Of a stretch of DNA of 36,447 nucleotides, positions 1-35,922 are shown one piece after another. The stretch lies in the IMG/VR virus record IMGVR_UViG_3300032213_003164, positions 1 to 36,447 of that record; one strand, given 5' to 3'. A model generated the notes under the pieces. It was not told where the DNA came from. It did not search any database and saw nothing but the letters and a program-made list of their open reading frames with translations. The position numbers and the translations under genes are program-made. The DNA is from a virus. Lineage: Duplodnaviria > Caudoviricetes. The stretch's first letter is position 1. Each line of letters begins with the position of its first letter.

Positions 1-465
1 CCTAATGGCAGATTTAAATCGGGAAAATTCGTACCAAGAAATCCCGAGATGTATATTGGCGATATTCACAACATAATCTATAGATCATCATGGGTAGGGA
101 GATTTTGCATGTATTGCGATCAGAATCCTAGCATCTTAAAATGGGCTTCAGAAGCGGTGCAAATAGAATATTGGAATCCCATTGATAAAAAAACCCACAT
201 TTACCACCCCGATTATTACATAAAGGTTCAAAAAGGGGATATGTCAACTGAGGATTGGATTATTGAAATAAAACCATCTTCCCAATATCAGTTAGAAAAA
301 AAACCAGTTCTAAAAGAACCAATGACAGAAAAGAGAATTAGATCCCATAACGATCAAATGCAAATCTGGATCGTGAATAGGGCTAAATTTGATGCTGCAA
401 TGAATTTTGCAAAATTCAACGGATATAAGTTCGGAGCTATAGATGAAAATTTCATTTTTAGATAA
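1..465 (+). CDS. gp4: Head completion nuclease, T4 gp4-like (TnsA-type endonuclease fold); 5' truncated by window
   Basis: Motifs GKFVPRNPE-YIGD, IIYRSSW, YCD-NP, W-SE, Y-PD, IEIKP. Frame is open from base 1 (PNGRFKSGKFVPRNPE...), so the true start lies left of the window, not at 49. Confidence 0.85.
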   Translation, partial: PNGRFKSGKFVPRNPEMYIGDIHNIIYRSSWVGRFCMYCDQNPSILKWASEAVQIEYWNPIDKKTHIYHPDYYIKVQKGDMSTEDWIIEIKPSSQYQLEKKPVLKEPMTEKRIRSHNDQMQIWIVNRAKFDAAMNFAKFNGYKFGAIDENFIFR

Positions 466-1037
466 TGGATTTTAAAATAGAAATAAGAGATGCTATAGAG
501 CAAGCTGGATCCCCCGCAAAATTAGCGGAGGAAAGCTTCCTGAATTATTCAAAGAACTATGCAGTACTCAGCAATTCAGAGTCACTTAGAAGTTTGGTTC
601 AGGGAAAGATCTACACATTTTATTATGATTCAGATATTAAGGCAGATAAGGGATTTGTTAATAGAAGACCCGTAGTGTTCTTTGAATCAAAAGAGATAAC
701 CCCATCAAAAAGCATAATAAAAGGAATAGACATGATCTTGCTAAGTCCAAAAGACAGAAAGAATTTCTTCATCCGATTACATTCTATTTATGGTAAAATC
801 ATGGATCAGAACGAAAAAAGAGATAGATCTGCGCACATGCCTTTAAGATTTGACCCCTCAGTATTAGAAACTTTAATGGGAGGTATCAAGTATAATCATG
901 CATACACCGGATACAAAATGGAAAAAATAAAAGGATTGAAAGAAATAGGGAGGGAAGAGTGGAGATATCTAGTATATCTAAACACCAAATCTATTGAGGG
1001 GGCTGATTTGAACGATATATACAACAAATATCAATAA
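465..1037 (+). CDS. Probable DNA end-protector protein, T4 gp2-like
   Basis: GKIYTFYYD..K....NRRPVVF resembles the gp2 G-x-Y-x-F-x-YD-x-K...P-x-V block; directly after gp4 with TAATG overlap. Confidence 0.55.
   Translation: MDFKIEIRDAIEQAGSPAKLAEESFLNYSKNYAVLSNSESLRSLVQGKIYTFYYDSDIKADKGFVNRRPVVFFESKEITPSKSIIKGIDMILLSPKDRKNFFIRLHSIYGKIMDQNEKRDRSAHMPLRFDPSVLETLMGGIKYNHAYTGYKMEKIKGLKEIGREEWRYLVYLNTKSIEGADLNDIYNKYQ
1014..1021 (+). promoter_or_regulatory. Putative late promoter GATATATA before portal 1
   Basis: Exact motif 15 nt upstream of ATG 1037; recurs at similar spacing before 9 other genes. Confidence 0.65.
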
Positions 1038-2629
1038 TGGCAGGATTTTTAGGAGATAATAGGAGCAATCCATTTTTTAGTAACGTTCTAAATAACCTTA
1101 GAAAAATAGGGTCTTTCGGAATGAACTATGGTGACATGGTTGTTAAAAACTCCCAAGCGGTGGGTACTACCGAAGCAATGTTCTTAAAACAGGGTGGGAT
1201 TCAGGATGAAAATTTCTTATATGCTTTAAGAAAGGCAGATACTACAGCTAAACAGTACATAGCTTATTTTGATAGGGATTATATTAATAAAAAAACATAT
1301 CTTAGAAGCTTTGCACTTAATCCTGAAATAGAATTTATTTTAGATACAGTTTGCGACGAAGCTATTGTATATGATGATAAAAACTTCTTCTCCTATTTTG
1401 TATCAACCGACATTAAGGGTATTGGTGAAGAGATGGAACAACAAATACAAGACAGATATAAAGAAATTTATAGTCTCTTTGGTTTTAATGAAGGAATATC
1501 TGCATGGCACTTTTTTAGAAACTTTTTAATTGATGGTATATTAGCATTTGAAATCATATTTGACTCAAGAGGAAAGAATATTATAGGATTTAAAGAATTG
1601 GATCCTGCATCATTATTGCCTTCTGTCGAAAAACAACTTGATGGTAATTTTGTAGAATGCTGGATTCAATACCCAGACAATCCTTCTTTATCTAGAAAAT
1701 TGTACGATTCACAGATTATTTATATTTCATACGCTAAAGGAAATACCACAACAAGAGTAAGCTATATAGAAAGATTGATCAGATCTTTTAATCTATTAAG
1801 AATTATGGAACATACCAGAGTGATTTGGAATGTTATGAATTCATCCTATAGAATGACAATGACTGTTCCAGTAGGAACAAAATCTCCACAAAAAGCAAAA
1901 CAATCATTGGCTGAATTAATGAGTATCTATAAAGAAGATATTAGCCTTAATCAAGATAGTGGTGAGCTTTTTGTAAACGGTAAACCAAACATTCAGTTCT
2001 TTAAAAATTACTTGATGCCTTCTACTCCTAACGGAACTCCTGATATAACACCATTAGCAGGAAGCGGAGATGCAACACCTTTTAGTGATTTAAAAGCTTT
2101 AGCATATTTTGCAGATAAACTTAAATTGGATTCTAAAATCCCGTATTCAAGATTCGATAGGGAAGATAGGGGTACACAAGGTACATTCAGTGGTAATGCA
2201 GAAGGATTAGATCAAGAAGAAATAAGATTCTTTAAATTCATTACAAGATTAAGATCAATCTATCAGGATATACTTCTAAAGCCTTTATGGATACAATTTT
2301 GCTTGGATCATCCAGAGCATAAAAAGGATTTCATGGTTAAGAGTCAATTCGGTTTAGATTATGTTAAAGATAATTCCTTTGCTGAAATAAAATATATGGA
2401 GATTCTTAATGCTAGAAAAGATCAGGTAACTAAAATTGCAGGTCTTTTAGATGCCGACGGAACACCATATTTCTCGTTAAAATATGTATTAGACAAATAT
2501 CTTGGAATGACCGATGATGATAAGATAGCTAACGAGAAAGCAAAGGAGGCAGCAGAGAAGAAGAAAAAAGAGAAGGAGAAAGAAGCAGAAGAAGCAGGGG
2601 AAGAACCAGAAGGAGAATTTAAACTTTAA
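1037..2629 (+). CDS. gp20: Portal protein, T4 gp20-like (paralog 1)
   Basis: LRSFALNPEIEFILD..DEAIVYD, FRNFLIDG, ELDP, SYIERLIRSFNLLRIME, PVG..SPQKA.Q.L.ELM..YK, YF..KL...SKIP.SRF, EEIRF.KFI.RLR; typical gp20 length. Confidence 0.9.
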   Translation: MAGFLGDNRSNPFFSNVLNNLRKIGSFGMNYGDMVVKNSQAVGTTEAMFLKQGGIQDENFLYALRKADTTAKQYIAYFDRDYINKKTYLRSFALNPEIEFILDTVCDEAIVYDDKNFFSYFVSTDIKGIGEEMEQQIQDRYKEIYSLFGFNEGISAWHFFRNFLIDGILAFEIIFDSRGKNIIGFKELDPASLLPSVEKQLDGNFVECWIQYPDNPSLSRKLYDSQIIYISYAKGNTTTRVSYIERLIRSFNLLRIMEHTRVIWNVMNSSYRMTMTVPVGTKSPQKAKQSLAELMSIYKEDISLNQDSGELFVNGKPNIQFFKNYLMPSTPNGTPDITPLAGSGDATPFSDLKALAYFADKLKLDSKIPYSRFDREDRGTQGTFSGNAEGLDQEEIRFFKFITRLRSIYQDILLKPLWIQFCLDHPEHKKDFMVKSQFGLDYVKDNSFAEIKYMEILNARKDQVTKIAGLLDADGTPYFSLKYVLDKYLGMTDDDKIANEKAKEAAEKKKKEKEKEAEEAGEEPEGEFKL

Positions 2630-2632
2630 TAA

Positions 2633-4357
2633 ATGGCAGGATTCATAGACAATTTTTCACAGAGTAACCCAAACATGGGACGTATACTCAAAGCCGTAAG
2701 TAAAATCGGAAGCTTCGGAATGGAGTATAAAGATCTTGTTGTGAAAAATTCTCAAGCAATTGGGGTTTCAGAAGCAATGATGAGACAAAAATTAGCATTA
2801 ACGGATTCTGATGAGGATTTTATTTTTAGCCTTGCAGCTGCAGATACCACTAGTAGAAAATACATTGCTTATTTTGATAAAGATTATCCATACAAAAGAG
2901 ATTTTTTAAGAAGCTTTGCACTCAATGCCGAGATAGAGTGGATTTTAGATATCCTTGCTGATGAAGCTATAGTTTATGATGATAGAAATTTTTGTTGCAG
3001 TCTATCACTGGTTAATATGGATCTAAAGGATGAAATAGCAGACTCATTAAGGGAGAATTTCAGAAAGATCTATGTTTCCCACGGATTTAACAACGGAATT
3101 TCAGCTTGGCAGTATTTTAGACAATTCCTAATAGATGGATTTTTATCTTTTGAAATAGTTTATTCCGATGATGGAAAACAAATAGTAGGATTTAAGGAAT
3201 TAGATCCAGTTTCATTGACCCCTTCTGTAGAAAGAAACCCCGGTGGCCAAACGGTTCAAATCTGGTATCAATACTACGGAGACAGCGTTAGAGAAAGAAA
3301 GCTATACGATGCTCAGGTAATCTATGTTTCTTTTGCAAACGGTAATAGCACAAGCAGAACAAGTTATGCTGAAAGATTAATTAGATCTCATAACCTTCTT
3401 AAGATAATGGAGCACACCAGAATCATATGGAATGTTATGAATGCTTCTTTCAGATTGAAAATGACTATCCCAGTTGGTTCAAGATCTCCACAAAAAGCAA
3501 AAGAGACATTAGGTGAATTAATGAATATGTATAAGGAAGACATAAAACTTAATACTGATTCCGGAGAATTGAGTATTAATGGACGTCCAAATTTACAATT
3601 CTATAAGAATTATCTTTTCCCAGTACAAGGAGGGGAGTCACCTAAAATTGAGACTATTAATAATGCAGGTCCTAATCTAAATGTTATAGATGCTGTGGTT
3701 TATTTCTTTAATAAATTAAAAGCAGATTCTAAAATACCATTTAATAGATTCGCTGCTAGATCCGGTGGAACTGTAGGAACCTATAAGATAGGAGCAGAAT
3801 CTGCAGAAAGAGACGAGATTAGATATAATAAATTCATTAATAGAATTAGATCGATCTATCAAGAGATCATACTAAAACCATTATGGATTCAAATGACTTT
3901 AGATTATCCAGAACTTGATAACGATCCTATATTTAGATCTCAATTAGGTCTTAAATTTAACTCAGATAATCAGTTTGGCGAATCTAAAGAGATTGAACAA
4001 CTAATTAAGAAAATAGATTTTATAGCCGGACTTTCCGAAATAAAGGAAAAGAAAGGGGAGGAAGAACTTCCATATTTTAGCCAGGATTTCCTTATAGATA
4101 AATTTTTAGGATTAACCAACGAAGATAGAAGAGTTAATAATATCTACAAGAAAAAGGAGGAGGAGGAGGAAGGCAAACAAGCAGCAGCTGCTTCGGGATC
4201 TGCTACCCCAGCACCAGCAGGGGGAAGTGACGCAGCAACCCCAGCAGCAGAAACTGGAGGCGATGAAGCAGCACCAGCAGAAGCTGCACCTGCGGAAGAA
4301 GCACCAGCACCAGCAGTAGAAGCTGCACCTGCAGCAGAAGAGACAGAAGCACCCTAA
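2633..4357 (+). CDS. gp20: Portal protein, T4 gp20-like (paralog 2) with Ala/Pro/Glu-rich C-terminal tail
   Basis: Same gp20 blocks colinear with paralog 1 (LRSFALNAEIEWILD, FRQFLIDG, SYAERLIRSHNLLKIME, RDEIRYNKFINRIR). Confidence 0.9.
   Translation: MAGFIDNFSQSNPNMGRILKAVSKIGSFGMEYKDLVVKNSQAIGVSEAMMRQKLALTDSDEDFIFSLAAADTTSRKYIAYFDKDYPYKRDFLRSFALNAEIEWILDILADEAIVYDDRNFCCSLSLVNMDLKDEIADSLRENFRKIYVSHGFNNGISAWQYFRQFLIDGFLSFEIVYSDDGKQIVGFKELDPVSLTPSVERNPGGQTVQIWYQYYGDSVRERKLYDAQVIYVSFANGNSTSRTSYAERLIRSHNLLKIMEHTRIIWNVMNASFRLKMTIPVGSRSPQKAKETLGELMNMYKEDIKLNTDSGELSINGRPNLQFYKNYLFPVQGGESPKIETINNAGPNLNVIDAVVYFFNKLKADSKIPFNRFAARSGGTVGTYKIGAESAERDEIRYNKFINRIRSIYQEIILKPLWIQMTLDYPELDNDPIFRSQLGLKFNSDNQFGESKEIEQLIKKIDFIAGLSEIKEKKGEEELPYFSQDFLIDKFLGLTNEDRRVNNIYKKKEEEEEGKQAAAASGSATPAPAGGSDAATPAAETGGDEAAPAEAAPAEEAPAPAVEAAPAAEETEAP
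4141..4354 (+). repeat. Low-complexity GCA/CCA-rich coding repeat (AAPAE-type) at portal 2 C-terminus
   Basis: Repeated gcaccagca / gaagctgcacctgc units encoding AAPAEAAPAEEAPAPAVEAAPAAEE. Confidence 0.8.
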
Positions 4358-4390
4358 TTTGAAACATTTTTTATAATCGCGTTTTTTATT

Positions 4391-4398
4391 TACATTTG
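4391..4398 (+). promoter_or_regulatory. Bacteroidota-type -7 promoter box (TAnnTTTG) before DNA ligase
   Basis: TACATTTG in the intergenic gap, 18 nt before ATG 4417. Confidence 0.55.
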
Positions 4399-4416
4399 AC
4401 CTGTAAATAAACAAAC

Positions 4417-5739
4417 ATGAATAAAGAATTAGAACTATTATTAGAAATTGAAGGATCCACCGGTGAGGGGTCTCAAAAAAGAAAACAGGAATTAATTTCC
4501 TCTAATCTAACTCCTGAATTGGAGTATATCTTATCCATTTGTTTTGATCCATTCGTTACAACAAAGCTACACAAGCTAAATTATAGCGAGATCTCAAATT
4601 CCACAGAAAATTCGAACCTATTTACACAATTTGTTGATCTATGTGAAGAGCTTAAGAAAGCACCAGCTATAAACGATCATTTAAGGACCAAGGCTGAACG
4701 TTTGGTTGAATCTACTGGTTATCATACAGAATTAAATAAAGTACTCGCTAAAGTGCTTACAAAGCGAATGAATATAGGGGTGGGTGCTAAACTCATTAAT
4801 AAAGCAGTGGGAAAAGAATTAATTCCCGATCCTAGCTTAATGTTAGCAGAGGATGATCACAAAGCTATTGATAAATGGAATTCCATTGTTTGCGAAGAAA
4901 AATATGATGGAGTTAGAGTTATTTGTGTCATAGAAGACAGAATTCCTAAATTCTATACCAGAGCATTTAATGAACTAAATAGCAAATTTCTAACAAAAAT
5001 AGCAAACCAACTATTAATCATTTCAAAAGGAATAGATGGTATTTTTTTCGACGGAGAGCTTACCGATTTAGACAGAAAGGGTGTTAGCGGCAAGGTTAAT
5101 CAAATGCTTAAAGGATCACCAAAAGAGTCCATAGGCGACGATCTACTTTTTAACACATTTGACATAGATCCTATTACATCTATCAGAAGCGGCAAAGGAA
5201 GTACTCCATACACAGAACGCAGGGATTTACTAGAAAAACTTTTTGAAAATGCAGAAACCCCTAATATAGTTTTAGCAAGAAAATGGGAAGCAAAGACTAA
5301 GGAAGAATTAATGCCAATTTATGATCAGATAGTAGCTAACGGAGGCGAAGGTGTTATTATGAAAGATCCTAATCACGTATACGAATGCAAAAGATCTAAA
5401 TCTTGGATTAAATTTAAGGAAGTAGAAGATTGTGATTTAGAAGTTACTGGTTGGTATCCAGGTGAAGGAAAAAGAGAAGGATTTATCGGAGGATTTAATT
5501 GTAAAGATGCATCAGGAGAATATCAGGTAAAAGTTGGATCTGGATTTACAGAAGCAGATCTTATTTCTCTATCTAAAAATCCTGATTCTTTGATTGGTAG
5601 AATTGTAACATTACAATATAACGTCCCTATAGAAGATAAGAACGGTAGTAAATCTTTATTCTTACCTAGATTTATAGAAGTTAGAAGTGATAAGACAGAA
5701 CCAGAAAACCTAGTAACAAGATTTAACAAAAAGAAATAA
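4417..5739 (+). CDS. lig: ATP-dependent DNA ligase
   Basis: Motif I EEKYDGVR, FDGEL, EGVIMK, WIKFK, OB-fold KVGSGF and SLFLPRF. Confidence 0.95.
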   Translation: MNKELELLLEIEGSTGEGSQKRKQELISSNLTPELEYILSICFDPFVTTKLHKLNYSEISNSTENSNLFTQFVDLCEELKKAPAINDHLRTKAERLVESTGYHTELNKVLAKVLTKRMNIGVGAKLINKAVGKELIPDPSLMLAEDDHKAIDKWNSIVCEEKYDGVRVICVIEDRIPKFYTRAFNELNSKFLTKIANQLLIISKGIDGIFFDGELTDLDRKGVSGKVNQMLKGSPKESIGDDLLFNTFDIDPITSIRSGKGSTPYTERRDLLEKLFENAETPNIVLARKWEAKTKEELMPIYDQIVANGGEGVIMKDPNHVYECKRSKSWIKFKEVEDCDLEVTGWYPGEGKREGFIGGFNCKDASGEYQVKVGSGFTEADLISLSKNPDSLIGRIVTLQYNVPIEDKNGSKSLFLPRFIEVRSDKTEPENLVTRFNKKK

Positions 5740-11865: not shown

Positions 11866-12633
11866 ATGAGTGATCAAAAAACAGGATTATTAATAAGATT
11901 CCCACTAAGCCCCAAGAAAGGAAAAAAATCTTCATATACAGTTTCTTTCTACGAATTTATGGAAAGAAAGATATCGGAGGGAATTAACCTAGGATATAAA
12001 TGTTTTATCTTCGAGGTCTCCGATGATGATTTTGATGTTTTAGATTTTGAAGTACATGGCGACATTAGGCAATCTATAAATTCTTACCTGAGAGAGGGAA
12101 TAAGATTAGCAATCTACATAAAGGTAAAGAAATATTTAACCTCGGATTCAATTGATGAGATTAATGAGGCACACAGCCAGATAACTACATGTCTTAATTT
12201 TGTAAAAAACTTTACCATCTTAGATCCTCAAGAATTCCCTATCATCCTACACGTTGGTGGTGCTAAGGGCGATAGAAGAGGTACAATGGAAGATTTTTGT
12301 AAAAAAGTAGAAAAATTATTTAATCCAGAAGATATTCTAAGTCTTGCTGTTGTTAACGACGAGAAGCCAAGTCTTTTCTCAGTCAAAGATCTTCTTCCTG
12401 GGGTATTCTATAAAATAAGAATTCCTATAGTTTTTAGATCGACGTCATATCCTACCAATCAGGGAAACCTAACTCTTAATGAGTCTTTATTCTTAGCAGC
12501 TTCTACGTGGAAAAGAACTATTAATCCTATTTTTGTTTACCTTCCAGGCAACACCCAAATTAACGGAGATCAAACTAAACCCTTTGGTTTGGAATTAGAT
12601 TTTGTCTTCGATAACAGATTACCAGAACCATAA
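11866..12633 (+). CDS. uvsE: UV-damage endonuclease (UvsE/UVDE) homolog, degenerate active site
   Basis: IILHVGGAKGD, LAVVNDEK..FSVKDL, IPIVF match UVDE blocks; several metal ligands appear absent. Confidence 0.65.
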   Translation: MSDQKTGLLIRFPLSPKKGKKSSYTVSFYEFMERKISEGINLGYKCFIFEVSDDDFDVLDFEVHGDIRQSINSYLREGIRLAIYIKVKKYLTSDSIDEINEAHSQITTCLNFVKNFTILDPQEFPIILHVGGAKGDRRGTMEDFCKKVEKLFNPEDILSLAVVNDEKPSLFSVKDLLPGVFYKIRIPIVFRSTSYPTNQGNLTLNESLFLAASTWKRTINPIFVYLPGNTQINGDQTKPFGLELDFVFDNRLPEP

Positions 12634-12659
12634 CATTTTATTCTCTCGGGGATTTCTAT

Positions 12660-12667
12660 TATATTTG
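12660..12667 (+). promoter_or_regulatory. Bacteroidota-type -7 promoter box (TAnnTTTG) before Nei
   Basis: TATATTTG in the intergenic gap, 15 nt before ATG 12683. Confidence 0.55.
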
Positions 12668-12682
12668 TAAAAATCTTTTGCA

Positions 12683-13504
12683 ATGCCCGAAATCAGCGAA
12701 GTAAGGATTATGTCGGAGTTTATTAACAAGGTTGCACGTGATGTTGATTACTTTATTGGCATATCTAAAAACCCAGAACACAAAAGCAAAACAACTCTAG
12801 TTATTCCCTTTGACCATTTTCAGATTAAAGCATATTCACGAGGAAAGGAATTAATGCTCAGATTTATAAATCTGGATTTTTCATATTCTGACATAACCGA
12901 TCTTAAGCCCCTGGTTTTTACTATGGGAATGAGCGGCAATTGGAATTATTCAAAAACTATGTTTGAAATACCTAAGCACACTCATTTTATGATCATGGGT
13001 TCTGATGGTAGTGTATTAGGTATGAATGATGTTAGAAGATTTGCCCGCTGGGATTGGAGAGGATGGAACGAAGAGAGAGGAAGCGATCCCGTACAGGAGA
13101 CAGAGATTTTTAAAAAAAAGATCTTAGAAAATTTGACGAAGGATAGGGTATTCCAAAAGCCAATCTTTGAAGTCATGATGAATCAGAAATATTTTAATGG
13201 CATTGGTAATTATCTAAGAGCTGAAATTCTAGGTAGAATAGATTTAGATCCAAGACTATCTGCTGGGGATTATATCACTAGAGCTGGAGATAAATTTTTT
13301 AATATGACAGAAAAAATAATTGTTGAATCATATGAACTTGGTGGAGGACAATTTAAAGACTGGTATAATCAAGCAGATCTAGAAAAAAAGAAAAGTAAAG
13401 AATTCCAGGCATGGATGCAATTTTATTTTAATAAAGATGCATGCGTTCCTATTAAAGATAAAAACGATCGTAATTTTTGGATCGATAAAAAATGGCTAAT
13501 ATGA
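12683..13504 (+). CDS. nei: Fpg/Nei family DNA glycosylase/AP lyase (zinc-finger-less, NEIL1-like)
   Basis: N-terminal MPE, RGKEL, MGMSG, DVRRF, H2TH MNQKYFNGIGNYLRAEIL; no CxxC pairs at the C-terminus. Confidence 0.9.
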   Translation: MPEISEVRIMSEFINKVARDVDYFIGISKNPEHKSKTTLVIPFDHFQIKAYSRGKELMLRFINLDFSYSDITDLKPLVFTMGMSGNWNYSKTMFEIPKHTHFMIMGSDGSVLGMNDVRRFARWDWRGWNEERGSDPVQETEIFKKKILENLTKDRVFQKPIFEVMMNQKYFNGIGNYLRAEILGRIDLDPRLSAGDYITRAGDKFFNMTEKIIVESYELGGGQFKDWYNQADLEKKKSKEFQAWMQFYFNKDACVPIKDKNDRNFWIDKKWLI

Positions 13505-14196
13505 TAAGCAAGGACACACTTAAGAAGATTCTATATTTCGATATAGAAACCGCAGGAATCAGTGAAACGTTTTCTGATCTAAAAAATTCAGATCCCAGAC
13601 TTGCAAAGATTTGGGAAAAAAGATGTGTCTGGCTAAGAAAGAATTCAGGGGATGAATATAAAGAAGCAACAGAGGATCAATTGTGGGAAGACAAATCTTC
13701 ATTGCATCCAGAATTTGCTAAAGTTGTTTGTATTAGCTTTGGCGCATATAATGGGGATGATATTAAAATCCAATCGGTTATAGGCGAAGAAAGTGAGATT
13801 CTTATTAATTCTAATAAGATATTTAATAATGCAGTGGCTAAAGGCTGGAAGCTTGGAGGACATACAATTAAGAATTTTGACATTCCTTTTGTCGGAAAAA
13901 GAATGATTATTAATCGAATAGATCCATCTCCTCTAATTGGCCAACTAAATAGAAAACCTTGGGATTCCCCAGTTATTGATATCTCTGAGATTTTTGCATT
14001 TGGTGGATATGGGCAAACCCACTCTTCTTTAGATCTTATGTGCTCTGTCTTTGGTCACGAGTCACCGAAGGATGAAATGGACGGATCCCTTGTCCATCCA
14101 TATTTTTACTCTGGAAGAATAGAGGAAATTAAGAAATACTGTGAAATGGACGTTAAGTATTTAATGAAGTGCTACGAATCATTCTCTTTTGATTAG
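13492..14196 (+). CDS. Stand-alone DEDDy 3'-5' exonuclease (PolB-exo-like)
   Basis: ExoI FDIET, ExoII GHTIKNFDIPF, ExoIII YCEMDV. Confidence 0.85.
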   Translation: MANMISKDTLKKILYFDIETAGISETFSDLKNSDPRLAKIWEKRCVWLRKNSGDEYKEATEDQLWEDKSSLHPEFAKVVCISFGAYNGDDIKIQSVIGEESEILINSNKIFNNAVAKGWKLGGHTIKNFDIPFVGKRMIINRIDPSPLIGQLNRKPWDSPVIDISEIFAFGGYGQTHSSLDLMCSVFGHESPKDEMDGSLVHPYFYSGRIEEIKKYCEMDVKYLMKCYESFSFD

Positions 14197-17559: not shown

Positions 17560-19641
17560 ATGAGTCTTAACCCTGAATTCGTTTTAGTCTTGGAAAAATC
17601 TTCACACAACCTGAAGTCCGAGAAGAATGGTAACGAATATTATCTTGAAGGTATAGCAGCAGTATTTGGTAAAGAGAATTCAAACCAAAGAATCTATGAG
17701 GAGAGAGAATATCTTCCCCATTTGCAGTATCTAAAAGAAAAGATAGAACAAAAAAGATTAGTAGGTGAATTAGATCACCCTAAGGAATTTGATGTGTCTT
17801 TAAAGAATATTTCGCACCTAGTTGAAGAGCTTGCTTATGACCAAGATAATAGAACTTTAAGAATTAAAGTTAGACTTTTAGATACACCAGCTGGTAAAAT
17901 AGCTAAATCTTTAGTTGATGCTGGTATTCCAGTTTCTATATCATCAAGAGCAGCAGGTAATGTGATGGAAAACAAAAAAGTACAAATTAAGAAGATTTTT
18001 ACATATGATCTAGTTGCTGATCCTGGATTTGAGAACGCTCAATTAGAGAGAGTTTATGAAAGCTACGGATACAATCTTAATGAAAAGTCAAAAAATGAAT
18101 CCATTTTAAATGGTCTTCCTTTGATGAACGAAAGCTTAGGATTAGAAAATGATTCAAATTTTAAGATATATAGAATCAAAGATCAAGATAAGATACAAAA
18201 GCTTCTAGATAAGGAGCCAAATAAGAGTTTAATCATGGAAAATAATTTCGTTACAGCGGAAGAAATGAATGGATATTCTAAACTAATCAAAAAAGAAATG
18301 GACACTATTAAAGGGTCTATTGAATCATTGAAAGGGATTAAAGAATCTTCCAAAATAACAGAATCATCTTCTCTTGAGGAAAGAGTTGGTAAGTTAGAAA
18401 AGTATGCTGATTATTTAGCAGAAAACCTAGAGGCATCTATTAAGTATGGTGAATACCTAGCTGAAAATTTAGAAGATTCAGTTTCTTATTCTAAGTATCT
18501 TGCAGAGAACCTAGACAAATCTATTTCTTATGCAAAATATCTTGCTGAGCATTTAGATCACAATATCTCTTATTCTGAGTACATTGCAGAGAACGTTGAC
18601 AACAACGTAACAGCAGTTAAAGGTCTAACAGAGAAAGTTGATCAATCTATTGCTTATGCAGAATACGTAGCAGAAAACGTAGACAAGAACATTAAGTATA
18701 GCGAATACCTTGCTGAAAACCTGGATAAGAACATTTCTTATTCTGAGTATCTTGCTGAGAGCGTAGATAAGAACATTTCTTATTCTGAGTACTTAGCAGA
18801 AAACCTAGATAAAGGTTTAGCTTATAGTGAATACTTAGCTGAGAAATTAGATAAGAACATTTCTTATTCTGAGTACTTAGCAGAAAACCTAGATAAAGGT
18901 TTAGCTTATTCTGATTATCTTGGGGAGAGCCTAGATAAGACAGTTCATTACAGTGAGTATATCGCTGAAAAATTAGCTAATAACATCAGCTATGCAGAAT
19001 ACATTGCTGAGTCTGTAAATGCAGCTTCAGGAACAGGAGAGGTAAAAGAAGCAGTAACAAAAGCAATTTCTGAAAACACAAGAACTTCAGGATATGCAGG
19101 AGATTACACAGAGATCTCTTCTAAAATTGACAATTTATTGAATACTGTCGGTAAACAAAAGACAGAAGAAATAGCAGAAAATAAGAACTATCCTTTCTTA
19201 AAGCTTATGGGCGAACAAGGACAAAGAGAATTCTTATCACTGCACGAAGGCCAAAAACAAAAGGTCGCCAAATCCTTAAACGAAAACAATTACTCATCCG
19301 AAAAAGAGGTAGTTGAAATTATGGGTAAAACTCTGAATGAACAAAATCAATCCGGAGAAAAATTCCTAGATTTAATGCCAGAAAAATACAAAACTACCTG
19401 GGATAATATGAACGAGTCTCAAAAGGCTTCTCTATTAGCTCAAAGTAAGTTTCATAAACTGGACACACCTTACCAAATCCAGAATTTCTGGGCTACAAGA
19501 GGTCTTACAGTTACTAAGGCAAATATCGAAAGAATAGACGAATCCCAAGAACAAATAATCGCAGCTCCTCAGCCAAAAGGAATTTCTAGAGAATATCTAG
19601 ATAATCTTTCTGAAGCTTTAGAAGCTAGATTTAAAAAATAA
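17560..19641 (+). CDS. gp21: Prohead protease (T4 gp21-like) fused to a scaffold/core domain
   Basis: LEGI, N.NQRIY, GELDHP, ISH, LLDTPAGKI, ISSRAAG, TYDLVADPGF in the first ~165 aa; then coiled-coil repeats; immediately upstream of MCP. Confidence 0.9.
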   Translation: MSLNPEFVLVLEKSSHNLKSEKNGNEYYLEGIAAVFGKENSNQRIYEEREYLPHLQYLKEKIEQKRLVGELDHPKEFDVSLKNISHLVEELAYDQDNRTLRIKVRLLDTPAGKIAKSLVDAGIPVSISSRAAGNVMENKKVQIKKIFTYDLVADPGFENAQLERVYESYGYNLNEKSKNESILNGLPLMNESLGLENDSNFKIYRIKDQDKIQKLLDKEPNKSLIMENNFVTAEEMNGYSKLIKKEMDTIKGSIESLKGIKESSKITESSSLEERVGKLEKYADYLAENLEASIKYGEYLAENLEDSVSYSKYLAENLDKSISYAKYLAEHLDHNISYSEYIAENVDNNVTAVKGLTEKVDQSIAYAEYVAENVDKNIKYSEYLAENLDKNISYSEYLAESVDKNISYSEYLAENLDKGLAYSEYLAEKLDKNISYSEYLAENLDKGLAYSDYLGESLDKTVHYSEYIAEKLANNISYAEYIAESVNAASGTGEVKEAVTKAISENTRTSGYAGDYTEISSKIDNLLNTVGKQKTEEIAENKNYPFLKLMGEQGQREFLSLHEGQKQKVAKSLNENNYSSEKEVVEIMGKTLNEQNQSGEKFLDLMPEKYKTTWDNMNESQKASLLAQSKFHKLDTPYQIQNFWATRGLTVTKANIERIDESQEQIIAAPQPKGISREYLDNLSEALEARFKK
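18403..19020 (+). repeat. 42-bp (14-aa) tandem coding repeat, 14 units plus a partial 15th, consensus YSEYLAENLDKNIS
   Basis: Register exact: 18991-18403 = 14 x 42. A 62-bp identical stretch occurs at 18764-18825 and 18848-18909. Confidence 0.95.
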
Positions 19642-19654
19642 CATTTTTCAAAAA

Positions 19655-21412
19655 ATGCAACTTATCAATCAACATGAAATTTTTGAAACCTGGGCACCAA
19701 TATTGGAAAGCAAAACAGGTATTCAAGAGAGAGGTAAATTAGACTGGTTAACTAAATACTGTCATTACCACTCATTAAACGAATCTGCCGGAGCGTATAA
19801 CTCTTTAGGCGTATTAAACGGTATGGGCCAAGTATCTCCTGCTTCTAACGTAGGTTTATCTGGCGGTCCTGCTGGCTTTTATGCAGGCGGATCTTATTCT
19901 GGAACTGGTCTTGGTTCTGGCGATAAATTCCCTTCTCTTTTACCTTTAGCTATTCAAGTAGCTGCTAAAACAGTAGGTTTTGATATCGTTCCAGTTATCC
20001 CAATGAGCGGTCCTACAGGCGTATTATCATACTTAGACTATGTTTACGCAGGTGGTAAATTATCTGGTACTGACTCTGTATCTCCATACACAGCAAACAC
20101 TCCAGATTTAATTAAAGTTCCAACAACAACAGCTTCTCCTGTTACTGGTTTAACAGTAGGATCTACTTACCTTTTAGGTGCTTCTGGTCTTTCTTCAACA
20201 AAAGATTTGGACTCTGCAGGTGTAGGTGCTTTAGTAGCTGGTAAATTCGTCGGTAGTTCAAGAATCGATGGTTTCCCAATTTTCCAAGTGGTAGCATTAA
20301 CTGTAGGTTTCTCTATTGCTGACGCAATCGGTGCAGACGCAGTTATTTACTCTGGTTCATATAATACAAGTACAAAGGTTTATACAATCTCTGCAACAGT
20401 AGGATATGCAAACGGTGCTGCTCAATTAGTTAAAACTTTAGAAGATCACGTACAAGGATTCACTGGTTCTGGCGTTGCTAACGACGGTACATGGTCTGGT
20501 CCTTATGTAGACGGTACTAAAGCTTACGATCCAATGTCAAGAGGAACTGCAGAAGGCACTTACTTTAAATCATTAGGTCTTTCTACATTCACTAAGTTTG
20601 TAGAGGCTGGTACATTCCAAGTTGCTGCTTCTGTTACAACTGAGCAAATCCAAGATTTGAACAAGCAATTCGGTATCGACGTAGTTTCTATGATCGAGAA
20701 CGCACTTGTTAACGAGGTTTCTCAAGCGATCAACAAGCACATCTTATCTAGAGCATTTGCTTTAGGTTGGTCTAACCACTATGAATTTGCAAACACCGAA
20801 TTAGGTGGAGCATCTTCTGCTTCTCTAAACATCAATTTAAATATTGGTTCTGGTGGAGCTTCAACTGCATCTTTCATCGGTAAGGACAATGGATCTTTAA
20901 CAATCTATACTCCTGGCGATATTGCTACAGGCGGATACGAGAACCAATCAACTGTACAAAGAAGATTATTCTCAAGAATCTTGGCTGCTGCTAACGTAGT
21001 AGCAAACAGAGGAAGAAGAGGACCTGCTAACTTTATTGTTACTAACGCTCAGGTAGCTTCTGCTTTACAAGATATCTCACAATTCACATTTGCTCCTTTT
21101 ACAAACACGTTAACTCAAAATAACGGTACTTTATATCCAGTTGGTTCAATTGCTGGTATGACCGTTTATGTTGATCAAAACATGTCTTTTGGCGATACGA
21201 GAGTATTGGTTGGAAGAAAAGGTGCTGATGACGAACCAGGTATGAAATTTATGCCTTACATGATGGCTGAGTCAATCCAGACTATCTCTGAAGGTACAAT
21301 GTCACCTAAAATTGCAGTTAAATCTAGATACTCTCTAGTAGAGGCTGGACACCATCCTCAAACAATGTACATATGCTTTAAAGCTATAGTACCTGCAACT
21401 GGTATCGCTTAG
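19655..21412 (+). CDS. gp23: Major capsid protein, T4 gp23-like
   Basis: WAPILE, V.PMSGPTG, T.EQIQDL..QFGID, GRRGPANFIV, GMTVYVD, FMPY, PKIAVKSRY; strong codon bias; followed by a terminator. Confidence 0.95.
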   Translation: MQLINQHEIFETWAPILESKTGIQERGKLDWLTKYCHYHSLNESAGAYNSLGVLNGMGQVSPASNVGLSGGPAGFYAGGSYSGTGLGSGDKFPSLLPLAIQVAAKTVGFDIVPVIPMSGPTGVLSYLDYVYAGGKLSGTDSVSPYTANTPDLIKVPTTTASPVTGLTVGSTYLLGASGLSSTKDLDSAGVGALVAGKFVGSSRIDGFPIFQVVALTVGFSIADAIGADAVIYSGSYNTSTKVYTISATVGYANGAAQLVKTLEDHVQGFTGSGVANDGTWSGPYVDGTKAYDPMSRGTAEGTYFKSLGLSTFTKFVEAGTFQVAASVTTEQIQDLNKQFGIDVVSMIENALVNEVSQAINKHILSRAFALGWSNHYEFANTELGGASSASLNINLNIGSGGASTASFIGKDNGSLTIYTPGDIATGGYENQSTVQRRLFSRILAAANVVANRGRRGPANFIVTNAQVASALQDISQFTFAPFTNTLTQNNGTLYPVGSIAGMTVYVDQNMSFGDTRVLVGRKGADDEPGMKFMPYMMAESIQTISEGTMSPKIAVKSRYSLVEAGHHPQTMYICFKAIVPATGIA

Positions 21413-25883: not shown

Positions 25884-26423
25884 ATGTCCCTTTTTGTTAT
25901 AGAAGGAGCTAGAAAATCAGGTAAAACCCATTTTGTTAGTTCCCAAAGTTGGATCCCAGTATTTAAATTTGATTTCAATGGATTGTACACATCCCTGGAT
26001 CTTCCTGCAGAAGGCGAGAAGACCCATCATATTGGGCTGGGTAAAGAATTGATGGTCCAGCAATTAAATCGAGACGGATTCCTTTCTGACCTAATGATGG
26101 ACCGAGGGATTATTACTAATTCAGTCTGGGGTATTCTAAATAAAAGGGTAACCAAAAAATCAGTTTATAAAGAGCTAGATTATATGCTCGGGAACAATCT
26201 TTTCAAAGACACCTTCTTTTTTTTAATTGTAGGGACATCCCCAGAAAATAGAGAAAAAGATGTTTGGGATTATATGGACAAGAAGATTCCAGAAGAGAGC
26301 GCTCTTTTTCTAGAATTCAGCGATTACCTTTCCGAAAGGGGCGTTAAGATTCAGACCATAGAAAATAGATTCGATGCTGAATCACTCTCCACATTTCAAA
26401 CTATAATTAAGAATTTAAAATAA
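25884..26423 (+). CDS. P-loop deoxynucleoside monophosphate kinase (thymidylate kinase-like)
   Basis: VIEGARKSGKT P-loop and MMDRG (DR motif). Confidence 0.7.
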   Translation: MSLFVIEGARKSGKTHFVSSQSWIPVFKFDFNGLYTSLDLPAEGEKTHHIGLGKELMVQQLNRDGFLSDLMMDRGIITNSVWGILNKRVTKKSVYKELDYMLGNNLFKDTFFFLIVGTSPENREKDVWDYMDKKIPEESALFLEFSDYLSERGVKIQTIENRFDAESLSTFQTIIKNLK

Positions 26424-27856
26424 TGTGCGGAATCCTAATTGCCCATAATCCTTCTCAAGCAAGGATAAATTCTATAGCTCATAGAGGCATAGAATTTTCT
26501 ACACACTCCGATGAGTCAGGATTAACTCTGTGTCATCATAGATTGCCTATCCAAACAGCAATAGGTGACGGATGGATTCAACCTGTAGAGATATCAAAAG
26601 ACAAGTACCTTCTATTTAACGGGGAAATTTTTAATTATCCCACGGAGCTATACGATTCAGATACTGCATATCTAGCTAGCCTTTTTTCTACCTGCCTAGA
26701 CTTTTCTTCACTTGAGATGTTTAGCGCTCTCTACGAGCCTCATATTAAGAGCTGGGATGGTTTCTGGGCTATTTGCCTGGTTGACATGAAGACAAAGAAT
26801 GTTATTTGCTTTACTGATCCATTAGGTAAGAAATGCCTATACTACAACGATCTTGGCGAAATATGCTCAGAAATGAAAGGACTTATTAACAGTAGCTCCT
26901 TTTTAGATCAGGCTTTTATGGGAGGAGTAAGAAAATGGGGATACGTTCATAATGAATCTACCCCGTTTGAGAACATTCAAAAGATCCGGCCTAATTACTT
27001 TTATCAATGGAATTTTGCTGCTCCTGACTTCAAGAAGCTATACGGTCCCTATTTCCCATTTAAACCCCCCAAATTTGACTTTAATTCTGAGGATGAGATG
27101 TTAGATTGGGTTTGGCATAAAGTTGAAGCAGCAACAAAGAATAGGCTGTTAAGCTTAGACTATCCAATATCCATCTTACTCTCAGGAGGACTAGATTCAT
27201 CTATTATTGGTGGACTTCTTCTTAAACTTGGAGCTGATGTTAGCTGGTACACCATAAACAATGGTCCAGACAATGATTATGTTAGAGAATGTGAGAATTA
27301 TTGGGGGATTAAGGTAAACCAATTAGAATACACAATGGGTGAGGATAGTATGGATCTAGATGAATTGTATTTTAAATGGAACGAATCTCCTATAGATCTT
27401 GGCAGTGTAGTTCCTCAGTACTTGTTATTTGACGCAATTAAAAAAGGAACGGACACCAGGATAGTCTTATCAGGGGACGGTGCGGATGAAATGTTTGGGG
27501 GATATAGAAGAATAGATGAGTATGACTCTCAAGGATCTGATGTTTTCCACGAATTAACATATTACCATTTACCAAGACTTGATAAGATGAGTATGGCTCA
27601 CACTCTAGAGCTTAGAAATCCATTCCTGAATTTAGAGCTTTTACAAATGGCTCTAAATCTTCCTATGGATCTAAGAAAGCATAAGACAATTCTTAAGAAG
27701 GCATTTAAGGGATTAGTTCCGGATTCGGTAATAGACAGAAAGAAGCATCCTCTAAAGAATGAAAAGATAGTAAAAGATCCTATGGAATATAGAATAGAAT
27801 CTATCGAAAGATTTAAAAAGGGTTACAGCGATTTTTTAGAAAGAGGAGAATATTAA
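26423..27856 (+). CDS. asnB: Asparagine synthetase B-like glutamine amidotransferase
   Basis: N-terminal MCGI (Ntn Cys), HRG, HHRL, FNGEIFNY, DPLGKK, LLSGGLDSS, LSGDGADEMFGGY, RLDKMSMAHTLELRNPFL. Confidence 0.9.
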   Translation: MCGILIAHNPSQARINSIAHRGIEFSTHSDESGLTLCHHRLPIQTAIGDGWIQPVEISKDKYLLFNGEIFNYPTELYDSDTAYLASLFSTCLDFSSLEMFSALYEPHIKSWDGFWAICLVDMKTKNVICFTDPLGKKCLYYNDLGEICSEMKGLINSSSFLDQAFMGGVRKWGYVHNESTPFENIQKIRPNYFYQWNFAAPDFKKLYGPYFPFKPPKFDFNSEDEMLDWVWHKVEAATKNRLLSLDYPISILLSGGLDSSIIGGLLLKLGADVSWYTINNGPDNDYVRECENYWGIKVNQLEYTMGEDSMDLDELYFKWNESPIDLGSVVPQYLLFDAIKKGTDTRIVLSGDGADEMFGGYRRIDEYDSQGSDVFHELTYYHLPRLDKMSMAHTLELRNPFLNLELLQMALNLPMDLRKHKTILKKAFKGLVPDSVIDRKKHPLKNEKIVKDPMEYRIESIERFKKGYSDFLERGEY

Positions 27857-29340
27857 TAAAGCTCAATTCCTGCTAAGGATTCTCCTTTAGCATTAAGGGG
27901 TGAATAATCTTCTGGCTCGTCGGTTAAAAGGAAGGTTTTACTTCCGTCGACAACCAAACCAGCTATTCCCATAAATCCTCTGTTAATTAGCATTGGAGTA
28001 CTTTTGTTGGTTCTGTCAACAATTGAGAATTTAACTTTCTTGTAAACCATCTCGCCAAATTCAATGTCTAATAGAATAACAGGTCTTTTGTCTGTTTGAT
28101 CGCCAACCTCTGCATGGGAATATTCCATTATTCTGTTGCTAAACGATTTGCCCCCAACTGTCCAGTTTAAGAATCCATCAACCTCTTCTGAAAAATCTGC
28201 ATGAAGTGAACATGCAATAGCTCCGTTGCCTGTATCTAATTTACCGATAAATTTACCAACTCCTTTAACATCAAAGATCTCTCTAAATCCAACCATTTTT
28301 CTAGGATAATTCCAGTTCTTCTTATCAAGTATAAAGTTTAGTATAATTCCTGTAACATCAAGACCAGTTGCTATTTCTATTCCATCAGTTCCTGGAGATG
28401 CGTTTACCTCCAGAACATATGGTATTCCTGTATTTTTTCCAATAATAATATCAACACCACACCATGAGCATTCTGTTGCTTTAGCGGCGTTTATTGCTAT
28501 TTTTTCTATCTCTTTTGGTATTTCTACCGCCTCTGCTATTCCACCTAAAGAAACGTTGGTTCTAAAGTCATTCTCTATTCTATGTCTTTTCATAGAAGCT
28601 ATGATAGTATAATTATCACCATCTCCTGTAGAATTTCTAGATCCAACCACATGTATTCTTAAATCATAGTCAGCTTCTATTTTTTCCTGAACTATCAGTT
28701 CAGTTTCAGGTGAAAGTTTCCACATTGTTTGCAATGTTGAAATAAGAGACGCTTTAGAATCTATTTGAAATACACCTATTCCTTTGGTACCACTTAATGT
28801 TTTTACTACAATTGGGTATTTTCCTCCTATCTTATTTATAGCATTTTCTATATCATCCTCTGATGAGATTAAGGCAGTTTTTGGTGTAGGTATTCCTTTT
28901 TCTTGAAGTTTCTGAACAGTATCTAGTTTGTCTTCGCAAAGAAGAACAGATCTTGGTGAATTTACAGATACGAATCCAAGTGATTCTAGTTTTTCAAAAA
29001 ATTTAACAGCGGCTGTTGAGTTTATTGATGATCTTCTAGCAAGTATTACTGTATTTTTAATATCAATTTCATACTTGTTGTTACTTCCTTTATTTCTAAT
29101 AAAGAAGCTTCCAGTCTCGCTTTTTTCAATTTCCCCTTGCGAAGTGTTAATTACTATGCATTTAAATCCCAGAGAACTGGATTTCTCCATCATTTTTTTA
29201 ACTGTTGGAGCAAGAGTATTTTTCTTTGATTCTAATTTGGTTGTAAGAATCACAAGAGAAATTGGCTTTTTAGGTCCTATCTTTGGCTTTCCAGCTCCTT
29301 GAAAAACAAAATCCTCTTCTTTGGTCAATAAATTATCCAT
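27853..29340 (-). CDS. rimK: RimK-family ATP-grasp ligase fused to a C-terminal retropepsin-like (RimB-type) protease
   Basis: DK..T...L...GIPTPKT, PIVVKTLSGTKGIGV, QEKI, DLR, FRTNVSLGG, GVDII, LEVNASPG; then KLDTGNGA..SLHA, RPVI, DRT...P.LINR. Confidence 0.9.
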   Translation of the reverse strand: MDNLLTKEEDFVFQGAGKPKIGPKKPISLVILTTKLESKKNTLAPTVKKMMEKSSSLGFKCIVINTSQGEIEKSETGSFFIRNKGSNNKYEIDIKNTVILARRSSINSTAAVKFFEKLESLGFVSVNSPRSVLLCEDKLDTVQKLQEKGIPTPKTALISSEDDIENAINKIGGKYPIVVKTLSGTKGIGVFQIDSKASLISTLQTMWKLSPETELIVQEKIEADYDLRIHVVGSRNSTGDGDNYTIIASMKRHRIENDFRTNVSLGGIAEAVEIPKEIEKIAINAAKATECSWCGVDIIIGKNTGIPYVLEVNASPGTDGIEIATGLDVTGIILNFILDKKNWNYPRKMVGFREIFDVKGVGKFIGKLDTGNGAIACSLHADFSEEVDGFLNWTVGGKSFSNRIMEYSHAEVGDQTDKRPVILLDIEFGEMVYKKVKFSIVDRTNKSTPMLINRGFMGIAGLVVDGSKTFLLTDEPEDYSPLNAKGESLAGIELY

Positions 29341-33200: not shown

Positions 33201-34316
33201 ATGTTCCTCGGGAAAATAAGCAAGATAAGAAAAATTTGGGGCCCTACTGCCAATTCCGAATCTGATACTGGAAGTTCAGAAAAAAAGGTGCTAGCAAATA
33301 TCACGATGGGATTTGTTAAACCCAAGATTATCAGTTACTATTCAGATTATGAAGAAAAAAAATACTACGAAGGCTTTGCCAAAACCCTTATAAATAAATG
33401 CAAAGAATTTGGCTTAGATTATGATATTTCTGAACTGCAATCTAGGGGAAATTATGGGGATAACTGTCTAATGAAGCCTGAGTTTATTCTTGAAAAAATA
33501 AAGCAGTATAAAAAGCCCTTAATTTGGATGGATTGTGACACTGATTTTAGAGAGCCCTTTGATCATTTCAATGAGGTCACCGAAGATATAGGAATGGCAA
33601 CACATAGCGGTAAATTTGATGGGATCAAAGCATCGCCCTTATATTTCAATTACACGAAGGGTGCTTTTAGGATAATAAGAGAATGGGTAGTTCATTGCAG
33701 AGAATGCTATACTAATGGTATAGTTGAACTTGATCATGATGCTTTAAAGCACTACGTTCTAAATGCAGTAAAAGGTGCTTATTCAGCCCATCTTTTAACT
33801 GACAATTGGAACGACTTTGTACACGGGCGTTATATTTGGAATGGAAATTCAAGGGTAGAAGGAAAAGTCCAGATTCACAGAAAGGTAGGGGTTAGCGATG
33901 AAACAAGATTAACCTACTCCCAGAACGTTAGGTGTTTTAAAATTATATTTAAATCACAAAACCCAGGGGACTTTAAATCAGCATTGATTTTATTGGACAA
34001 TTTTTCCAATCAATCTAGAATTAATTTTATTTTTCCAAGAAATCCCCTAACACAATTAGTTGATAACGAGGATTTTAATAGGCTTAAAATAGAGTCGGGT
34101 GGATTAGTATATTTTGATCCTTCAGAATTTGATTCCATTGAGCCTGGAAAATCTGACATTATTATAGAAGTTAAAGATGTAAAAGAGATAGAGAAAGAAT
34201 GGGATCTTAAAATTAGATCAGCCATAGACACTGAACAAAATCCTCTTAATATTTTAAAATTTAATAAAAAAGAAGGAAATATCAGAATAAAAACCATAAA
34301 AAAATTATGGATTTAA
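33201..34316 (+). CDS. GT-A fold glycosyltransferase, related to 32543-33130, with extra C-terminal region
   Basis: IISYYS, NCLMKPEFI, LIWMDCD (DxD), ASPLYFN, DH. Confidence 0.7.
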   Translation: MFLGKISKIRKIWGPTANSESDTGSSEKKVLANITMGFVKPKIISYYSDYEEKKYYEGFAKTLINKCKEFGLDYDISELQSRGNYGDNCLMKPEFILEKIKQYKKPLIWMDCDTDFREPFDHFNEVTEDIGMATHSGKFDGIKASPLYFNYTKGAFRIIREWVVHCRECYTNGIVELDHDALKHYVLNAVKGAYSAHLLTDNWNDFVHGRYIWNGNSRVEGKVQIHRKVGVSDETRLTYSQNVRCFKIIFKSQNPGDFKSALILLDNFSNQSRINFIFPRNPLTQLVDNEDFNRLKIESGGLVYFDPSEFDSIEPGKSDIIIEVKDVKEIEKEWDLKIRSAIDTEQNPLNILKFNKKEGNIRIKTIKKLWI

Positions 34317-35161
34317 TTAAAGGCACGGGAATGCCATTTCCCCAAAATTTTTCTTCATGTTCTAATCTACCTCCTAAAGAATTTTGCTGGGATAAAGATG
34401 CTGGAATAGCAGAGATCTATATTGATGATAAAATAATGGATGGATTACAAACCCCAAAGAATGATTATAAATTCGGATGGCTATGCGAATCCAGAGAAAT
34501 TGCGATAGACATTTTTAACAACATATTGCAAAATCCGCAAAAATTTAAAGAAAAGTATGCGGGTATCTTTACGTGTGATAAGACTCTACTTGGGTGTGAC
34601 TCTTTATTCATATATGCACCTCCGGGATCTAACCTTCCGTGGACCAAGCCTGAAGAAATATTAATTTATGAAAAAAGTAAACTATGCTCTATGTTATGCT
34701 CGCCTAAGGCAAGAACAGAAGGGCATAAACTTAGATTAGATGTTGCAAAATCATTAATGAATAAGATCGATCTATTTGGGGGTGCGCACGACTCGCCTAG
34801 AATAGGTGAGGGATTTGGACCAAAGCAGGATTGGTGGAGATCTAAATTACCAGCTTTAAAAGATTACATGTTTTCAATTGTTTTCGAAAATGCTGTTTAT
34901 GACAAGTATTACACTGAAAAAATAACAGACTGTTTTGCAACAGGGACAATTCCAGTTTATTGGGGAACTAGAAAAGTAATAGAGGATTTCAATCAGAATG
35001 GAATAATATTCTTTAATGACATAAAGGGTGACATAGGAATACTATCCGAAGATCTATACAAATCTAAGATGGATGCAATAATAGACAACCTAGAAAGAGC
35101 TAAAGCTTTGGAATCTGCAGATGATATTATTTATAAAAAAATTAAATCGTGCATAAAATAA
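34307..35161 (+). CDS. GT10 family (alpha-1,3-fucosyltransferase-like) glycosyltransferase
   Basis: Signature YMFSIVFEN....YYTEKI.DCF..GTIPVYWG. Confidence 0.88.
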   Translation: MDLIKGTGMPFPQNFSSCSNLPPKEFCWDKDAGIAEIYIDDKIMDGLQTPKNDYKFGWLCESREIAIDIFNNILQNPQKFKEKYAGIFTCDKTLLGCDSLFIYAPPGSNLPWTKPEEILIYEKSKLCSMLCSPKARTEGHKLRLDVAKSLMNKIDLFGGAHDSPRIGEGFGPKQDWWRSKLPALKDYMFSIVFENAVYDKYYTEKITDCFATGTIPVYWGTRKVIEDFNQNGIIFFNDIKGDIGILSEDLYKSKMDAIIDNLERAKALESADDIIYKKIKSCIK

Positions 35162-35922
35162 CATTAGGGGCAGCTTCAAGAAATAGGCCAGATCAAATGT
35201 CATCTGTTATCAATAATTGGATAGCTAAATCCCTTAATAGAGAAAGGATTGAAGTAGTAATATCTATCGATGAAGATGATCCCACTGTGGATTCATATAA
35301 ATCCGTGATAGAAAAAGATTCAGATTCTCTAGGAATAGACATAAAATTATTAATCAATAAAAACACAAATACTGTTCAAGCAATAAATAGAATAAAGGAT
35401 GTATTTACTGGTGATATTATAATCATATTCTCTGATGATACTGATTGTTTTACGGAATGGGATAATGCTATAGACGAGGTTTATTCTAGAATGCCAGGAA
35501 GCTATATTATAAAAACTAGCGATGGAATTGACAAGGACCTAATAACTATGCCTATTTTCACTAAAAGCTATCTGGATCATAAACAATGGATTTATTATCC
35601 TGGATATAAACATATGTTCTGTGATACCGAATTAACATGCATTGCATACATGGAGGACAAAGTAATCGACGCTTCCGATCTTGAATTTATGCATTTACAT
35701 TATTCTCAGGGTCATTCAGAAAAAGACTATGTTGATAGGAAAAATCAAAATACATTCTATGATGGATTTAATGTTTTTAGAAAAAGAATTTCTAGAAATT
35801 TTCATTTGCATGATAATCTACCAAAAGAAAAAATACCTTCTTCTATCTTAGAATGGATAGAAAAAAATCATAAGGATTTTCCTGAAAGGGAATTAGGGGA
35901 AGAAGAATTATTTATGGAATAA
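35149..35922 (+). CDS. GT2-like glycosyltransferase
   Basis: ASRNRP, EVVISIDEDD, AIN, IIIFSDD, YKHMFCDTE, HLH; GTG start overlapping the GT10 stop. Confidence 0.75.
   Translation: MHKITLGAASRNRPDQMSSVINNWIAKSLNRERIEVVISIDEDDPTVDSYKSVIEKDSDSLGIDIKLLINKNTNTVQAINRIKDVFTGDIIIIFSDDTDCFTEWDNAIDEVYSRMPGSYIIKTSDGIDKDLITMPIFTKSYLDHKQWIYYPGYKHMFCDTELTCIAYMEDKVIDASDLEFMHLHYSQGHSEKDYVDRKNQNTFYDGFNVFRKRISRNFHLHDNLPKEKIPSSILEWIEKNHKDFPERELGEEELFME

Follow-up and report, generated by a model that had tools for sequence, protein, structure and literature searches.

Two tandem, diverged gp20-type portal genes in a lineage of large uncultured aquatic phages

To our knowledge, the tailed phages that have been studied generally build their portal ring from one protein encoded by one gene. 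For phage T4, the available text of PMC9958956 and PMC4493910 describes a ring of one protein, gp20, made from a single gene. Here we analysed the IMG/VR virus record IMGVR_UViG_3300032213_003164 (hereafter the window: a linear record of 36,447 bases, about 13% complete), in which two full-length portal genes of the T4 gp20 family, copies A and B, lie in tandem. Both proteins belong to the same family as T4 gp20 (PDB 3JA7, 6UZC, 9MKB, 9LU6/9LU7) across wing, stem, clip, tunnel loop and crown, and the likeness extends to the gp4 and gp2 neighbours and to relatives with T4-like terminase, neck, sheath and capsid genes. In T4 a single gene yields a homododecamer; the window has two genes, 52% identical to each other and each about 17-20% identical to gp20, neither copy keeps the basic inner-clip pair R338/K342 of T4, and, as a further departure from T4, 13 kb separates the portals from the protease and capsid genes. 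The window and two terminal-repeat genomes of 373 kb (G011 and G013), in which both portal copies are present, differ from the canonical one-gene system in having two full-length portals; the two complete genomes also have two tail tubes, yet one terminase, neck adaptor, sheath, protease and major capsid gene.

The nearest portals belong to huge phages with a single portal, which share the gp4-gp2-portal order: G015 (a 482-kb IMG/VR record and the nearest complete single-portal genome), LR756500, LR756501-4, LR745206 and the Lak phages. Portal identity to the window is about 50% for G015, 45% for LR756500 and 33-38% for the others, and all of them have a single full-length portal, with a single tail tube in those searched for it, G015 among them. 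Lak megaphages (proposed Grandevirales), compared here by portal (35-38%) and tube (36%) identity alone, use TAG for glutamine and have genomes of 476-660 kb according to the accessible part of PMC11165621; their portals read through TAG, whereas the window genes are open under table 11 and the complete double-portal relatives measure 373 kb. The freshwater Bacteroidetes phages that encode bS21 (PMC9723584) are also large and T4-like, and their abstract speaks of 'portal vertex proteins'; in the 30 of 231 supplementary places available to us there is one portal row per scaffold, gene order differs, and a bS21 gene was found in none of the eight records searched for it here. Isolate jumbophages likewise have one portal row each in the 30 of 41 places available from PMC13573597. 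No two-portal phage was described in the literature covered, with subscription journals and bioRxiv supplements, which might list such a pair without comment, outside that coverage.

A first-pass annotation had read this locus as two tandem, intact, diverged gp20-type portals, and the pair is confirmed. Copy A (1037..2629; 530 amino acids) and copy B (2633..4357; 574 amino acids), on the + strand like the other portal and head-gene features located below, match the Pfam profile PF07230 (Portal_T4, 433 positions) over nearly its whole length (A, positions 7-429, E 2.2e-66, 224.9 bits; B, positions 9-426, E 8.4e-64, 216.3 bits; cut-off 22.9), and both also match PHROG 213 and have T4 gp20 as top fold match. 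The proteins each begin MAGF, are identical at 263 of 507 positions and run colinear from residue 1 to about residue 500. Their junction (2627..2635) consists of the TAA stop of A, a second TAA that fills the 3-nucleotide gap, and the ATG of B. The two genes are not an assembly repeat, because codon-aligned DNA identity is 61% (495 codons) and falls to 45% at third positions, with a longest identical run of 19 nucleotides. The chimeric join that the same annotation had named as a possible undoing did not materialize either: contigs from three of four sequencing runs bridge the junction (X1, 2282-5739; X5, 2564-2816; X6, 2269-2782), as judged on contigs, not raw reads, with X1 possibly the window's own source sample. 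Although the two window open reading frames (ORFs) share a frame, the gap is a multiple of three in just 63 of the 119 unique pairs sampled below, so no read-through fusion is conserved and that possibility was rejected.

The tandem arrangement extends across a lineage. Together with five GenBank loci, seven scans across contigs of viral and metagenomic origin, two of which kept their best 80 matches each, yielded 303 portal-match loci, many of them redundant; all locus counts describe this sample and read as 'at least'. Among the loci are 188 complete tandem pairs, of which 119 are unique, and 44 flanked singles, of which 27 are unique. A further 51 loci have a second ORF that is partial, and 20 are singles cut by a contig edge; neither group enters the pair counts. 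Every sampled complete pair is tandem, and pairs are still found at about 53-59% identity to the window copies. In an IQ-TREE phylogeny of 55 rows, first copies form one clade and second copies another (100/99 each) with mirrored branching, on stems of 0.23 and 0.21, and the A+B grouping has a support of 94/80. A FastTree phylogeny of 114 rows (44 representative pairs and 26 singles) recovered clades A and B with supports of 100 and 99, no flanked single inside either and 26 single-portal outgroups outside both; here the A+B grouping is weak (68). Loci L034-L037, at 22% identity, were left out of later trees. The old duplication first proposed fits these trees as one tandem event, whose exact placement with respect to the nearest singles is tentative, and the single-copy relatives once envisaged as counter-evidence do not occur within either clade.

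A tblastn search with B against GenBank phages matched 2,046 places in 2,044 records, so phages beyond the double-portal group seldom have a second portal. Among the matches listed, LR756501 and LR756503 have two places; the second place in LR756501 (L098; LR756501.1 15166-15351, - strand) is a 58-position match in a 101-residue frame covering portal profile positions 374-431, far from a full portal. G015 has, besides its portal, a 106-residue frame (260068-260241, + strand) with a weak match to profile positions 248-307 near the clip (E 5.6e-4). One lone in-clade B without A upstream (L260:1-1582) was excluded as probably chimeric: on this 2.5-kb low-coverage contig the C terminus of rpoC is followed by a truncated B, and the end residues of rpoC are identical to those of A. 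At the edge-cut loci L047 and L048, where upstream bases were read, the end of A is present. Separately, a copy is broken into two ORFs at L107:7650-9250 (B) and in L227 (A) and intact in close relatives, a likely assembly error.

Both copies evolve under tight constraint. The 39 unique pairs compared give 741 genome comparisons, of which 725 were dropped for saturation or a synonymous divergence (dS) under 0.05; in the remaining 16, unsaturated in both genes, the ratio of nonsynonymous to synonymous divergence (dN/dS) had a median of 0.015 for A and 0.014 for B, with a maximum of 0.044. The dN values of A and B rise together over all 741 comparisons (slope 1.04, r 0.99), and domain-by-domain conservation is alike. 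These estimates show strong and equal purifying selection on A and B, which bears out the suggestion that the duplicates were retained by selection and runs counter to neutral evolution of either one.

We placed portal features by aligning A and B to T4 gp20, with domain limits carried over from the available text of PMC4493910, because monomer models were too weak in stem and clip (predicted local distance difference test 61 and 55; best Foldseek match T4 gp20 at E ~1e-14, template-modelling score 0.35-0.42, root-mean-square deviation 18-24 Å); the models confirm the family alone. Wing, stem, clip, tunnel loop and crown are all present in A and B. The T4 gp20 290-299 region, which contacts the terminase according to the accessible part of PMC4493910, aligns with the clip tip of A (residues 280-289; 1874..1903) and is retained in B (residues 282-291; 3476..3505). 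In both, the lysine matching T4 K296 is kept (K286 invariant in 63 A rows, K288 in 62 B rows), and N291, M292 and R295 are not identical. By this alignment, A and B both appear to keep the terminase-facing clip.

Other features tell the copies apart. The tunnel-loop region, aligned to T4 376-392, spans residues 369-387 in both; its net charge is -1 to +1 in 44 of 44 A sequences (2141..2197) and +2 or +3 in 44 of 44 B sequences (3737..3793), where R376 is invariant, compared with 0 or +1 in 12 near singles. At 90% conservation, A and B are fixed for different residues at five positions, one of them N-terminal, one in the clip, one in the stem and two at the start of helix 8; near singles agree with B at two and with A at three. 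In the crown, a 3-residue segment kept by B and most singles is missing from A.

The C termini also differ. In the window, A ends its acidic tail in a hydrophobic-x-hydrophobic motif (FKL; 2618..2626), and B ends in a low-complexity Ala/Pro/Glu tail, predicted to be disordered, without the motif (4178..4354). Across the 119 unique pairs the motif is on A alone in 60, on B alone in 38, on both in 18 and on neither in 3, compared with 33 of 872 other ORFs. The sub-lineage of the window has it on A, another sub-lineage on B and a third on both copies; 9 of 27 unique singles have it, including all seven of the near branch L032/L313-L318. Either copy thus appears able to supply the motif, which fits a shared location of A and B, and the motif may bind an assembly partner. 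A stricter rule of exactly one motif-bearing copy per pair held in 39 of 39 pairs of a first set but in 98 of 119 of the wider set, and was dropped. As side observations, the motif is absent from A, and from B where B is complete, in L170, L171, L173, L244, L231, L232 and L249, and the same four residues end both copies in L231 and L232.

Targeted searches for partner genes, whose counts may miss distant paralogs below search sensitivity, found one terminase per double-portal record wherever it was found (5/5, and 9/13 in a second set), one gp13-like neck adaptor where present (4/5 and 8/13), and one sheath (6/6) and one protease (6/6) per relative searched; the single-partner records include the terminal-repeat genomes G011 and G013. 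There is one strong major capsid gene; a weak, distant capsid-like match turns up among genomes with two portals as well as among those with one. Self-comparison of the 226 ORFs of a 219-kb relative (G001; 79 annotated) revealed, by our reading, two paralog pairs in the head/tail core, the portals and tandem tail tubes (L136:17464-18632, G001 93464-94632; 46% identical). Two tail tubes occur in 14 double-portal records (one partial in G016, which is cut at a contig end), and one in each of the five single-portal records holding the gene; the tail-tube tree leaves that duplication undated (supports 56/45 and 46/6). G001 also has a three-gene block with an AAA ATPase twice (67825-71186, - strand, and 208080-211516, + strand; 25-30% identity), which resembles the MoxR-type chaperone modules described in the available text of PMC7824862.

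A single set of partners, the apparent retention of the clip in both copies and a motif that can sit on either of them point to a single location. We lean slightly towards one portal vertex with a mixed A/B ring that would serve both packaging and tail attachment. In this scenario one old tandem duplication left two portal copies kept under strong selection; A and B, being adjacent, would be made together, and the ancestral homomeric ring would have become mixed at once. Engineered T4 portals remain functional when gp20-GFP or Hoc-gp20 fusion subunits take up to about half of the ring positions (PMC9958956, accessible text); since that ring tolerates two subunit kinds, a fresh duplicate would mix, although the engineered rings are artificial and share a core sequence, whereas A and B are a natural paralog pair. 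Complementary changes may then have made both copies needed: a basic tunnel loop in B, a tail motif on either copy, and the fixed differences in clip, stem and helix 8. The available part of PMC4493910 reports that T4 tunnel loops touch their neighbours and influence ring size. The proposed route, from homomeric ring through duplication to retention of both copies, resembles that of the 20S proteasome, chaperonins and Lsm rings (PMC7480870, in the part available), where it is shown structurally and mostly in eukaryotes, whereas for A and B we infer co-assembly. Alternating A6B6 would be the simplest subunit order. The full proposal of an obligate alternating A6B6 portal, forming a six-fold heteromeric DNA gate with alternating basic and neutral-to-acidic tunnel loops, together with a two-paralog tail tube in a ~300-370 kb phage lineage, is tentative and on balance doubtful. 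Among the three mechanisms offered in the first-pass annotation, the hetero-oligomer fits best, with its 6+6 alternation conjectural, and the other two are weakened.

Several points weigh against a mixed ring. A and B are known here from their genes, their co-assembly, expression and presence in virions being presumed, and about 55% of duplicated homomers in E. coli remain separate homomers according to the accessible part of PMC7480870. Five fixed differences are few for an obligate alternating interface. The tail-motif pattern reflects few independent events, about one loss from B and two or more from A, and it has three exceptions and a match in just 9 of 27 unique singles. A co-duplicated tail tube would suit two particle types equally well, and G011, G012 and G013 are near-copies of one sub-lineage. 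A concerted-change test of sites shared by A and B per lineage gave 10.2 versus 10.6 per quartet, no overall excess, with a local excess at residues 250-325 noted post hoc. A complex prediction (2 x A 88-420 + B 91-420) scored 0.01 against a mark of 0.32 with the partner fold uncertain, and carries no weight either way.

Two homomeric rings with different jobs, either at two vertices (packaging versus neck and tail) or in two particle types each with one tail-tube paralog, would explain the contrasting tunnel-loop charge of A and B and the second tail tube of double-portal records, and separate homomers are the commonest fate in the E. coli survey (PMC7480870, part available). We consider this unlikely, given that terminase, neck adaptor, sheath, protease and major capsid gene are single, that clip tip and all domains persist in both copies at equal rates, and that the tail motif switches copy between lineages. 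In T4-type phages head assembly starts from the portal at a single vertex (accessible text of PMC4493910 and common background), and the two specialised vertices suggested earlier are weakened because complete genomes encode the terminase, the neck adaptor and the sheath once each and both clip tips are kept.

Less probable again is that one copy forms the working homomeric portal and the other a portal-derived ring, such as an assembly initiator, a stacked or internal ring or a transient prohead part. The diverging tails and channel charge and the loss of the 3-residue crown segment from A would suit such a role, but neither copy evolves faster, in dN or in stem length, and ancestral residues are split, with near singles siding with B at two and A at three of the five fixed positions; the equal rates and equal domain conservation also weaken the repurposed paralog of the earlier proposal. 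Marginally less probable still is that the copies are interchangeable, maintained for dosage or because host or defence decides which one is used, and that they mix at random or take turns. Bacteria are known to have immune sensors that recognize portal proteins, and the tight tandem layout and shared clip tip agree with this reading, but redundancy predicts losses or homogenization, whereas the 119 unique pairs show no loss while diverging to about 53-59% identity and carry copy-specific invariant residues. The view that the pair is an assembly artefact, a fusion by read-through or a surplus copy in decay has almost no chance of being right: the common frame of the window ORFs would suit a fusion, but DNA identity, the bridged junction, the loss of frame among relatives and a dN/dS of at most 0.044 all oppose it.

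Around the pair, the window holds a gp4-like head completion gene with an open 5' end (1..465; PHROG 218, E 3e-40) and a gp2-like DNA end protector whose stop overlaps the start of A (465..1037; PHROG 429, E 1.3e-5). Downstream of the portals come ligase, clamp loader, guanylate kinase and exonuclease genes, with the protease and capsid genes 13 kb further on: a single-copy prohead protease of 693 amino acids with a long C-terminal extension (17560..19641; PF03420, one match in six of six relatives) and a gp23-family major capsid protein (19655..21412; PF07068). The near single-portal relatives L313-L320, L070 and L306 also have other ORFs between portal and protease/capsid genes, which are adjacent in distant singles, so this separation is likely older than the duplication. 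In G001 the protease region (L138:14801-16791) consists of two ORFs of 413 and 199 amino acids, either a true split or an assembly error. Accessory genes at 11866-14196, 26423-29340 and 34307-35922 encode UvdE-like endonuclease, MutM-like glycosylase, 3'-5' exonuclease, asparagine-synthase-like and RimK-like ATP-grasp proteins and glycosyltransferases. A scan for sigma-70 promoters and terminators gave matches at chance level, the T4 late TATAAATA box was absent near the portals (sole match at 33389), and no RNA runs were among the sequencing runs listed for the sequence.

The host is likely a member of the Bacteroidota, because Shine-Dalgarno-like words precede just 7 of 145 genes in a relative, compared with 13.6% of random positions, and, among named phages, portals near to A and B are found in Prevotella-assigned Lak phages and Tenacibaculum phages; Bacteroidetes usually lack such words, according to the available text of PMC9723584. 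Run labels place X5 and X7 in lake water and X6 in freshwater, and some related contigs are labelled marine. The gene trees and selection estimates present a real, lineage-wide and strongly conserved duplication of an otherwise single-copy gene in uncultured large aquatic phages. A lineage needing two portal copies over long divergence breaks the one-gene portal rule, whichever mechanism applies. If the ring is mixed, its subunits may split conflicting jobs (fitting a five-fold capsid and the motor, meeting a twelve-fold neck and gating DNA), asymmetric, subunit-level tests of tunnel loop and clip would become possible, and the portal would offer a viral case of a homomer turned obligate heteromer.

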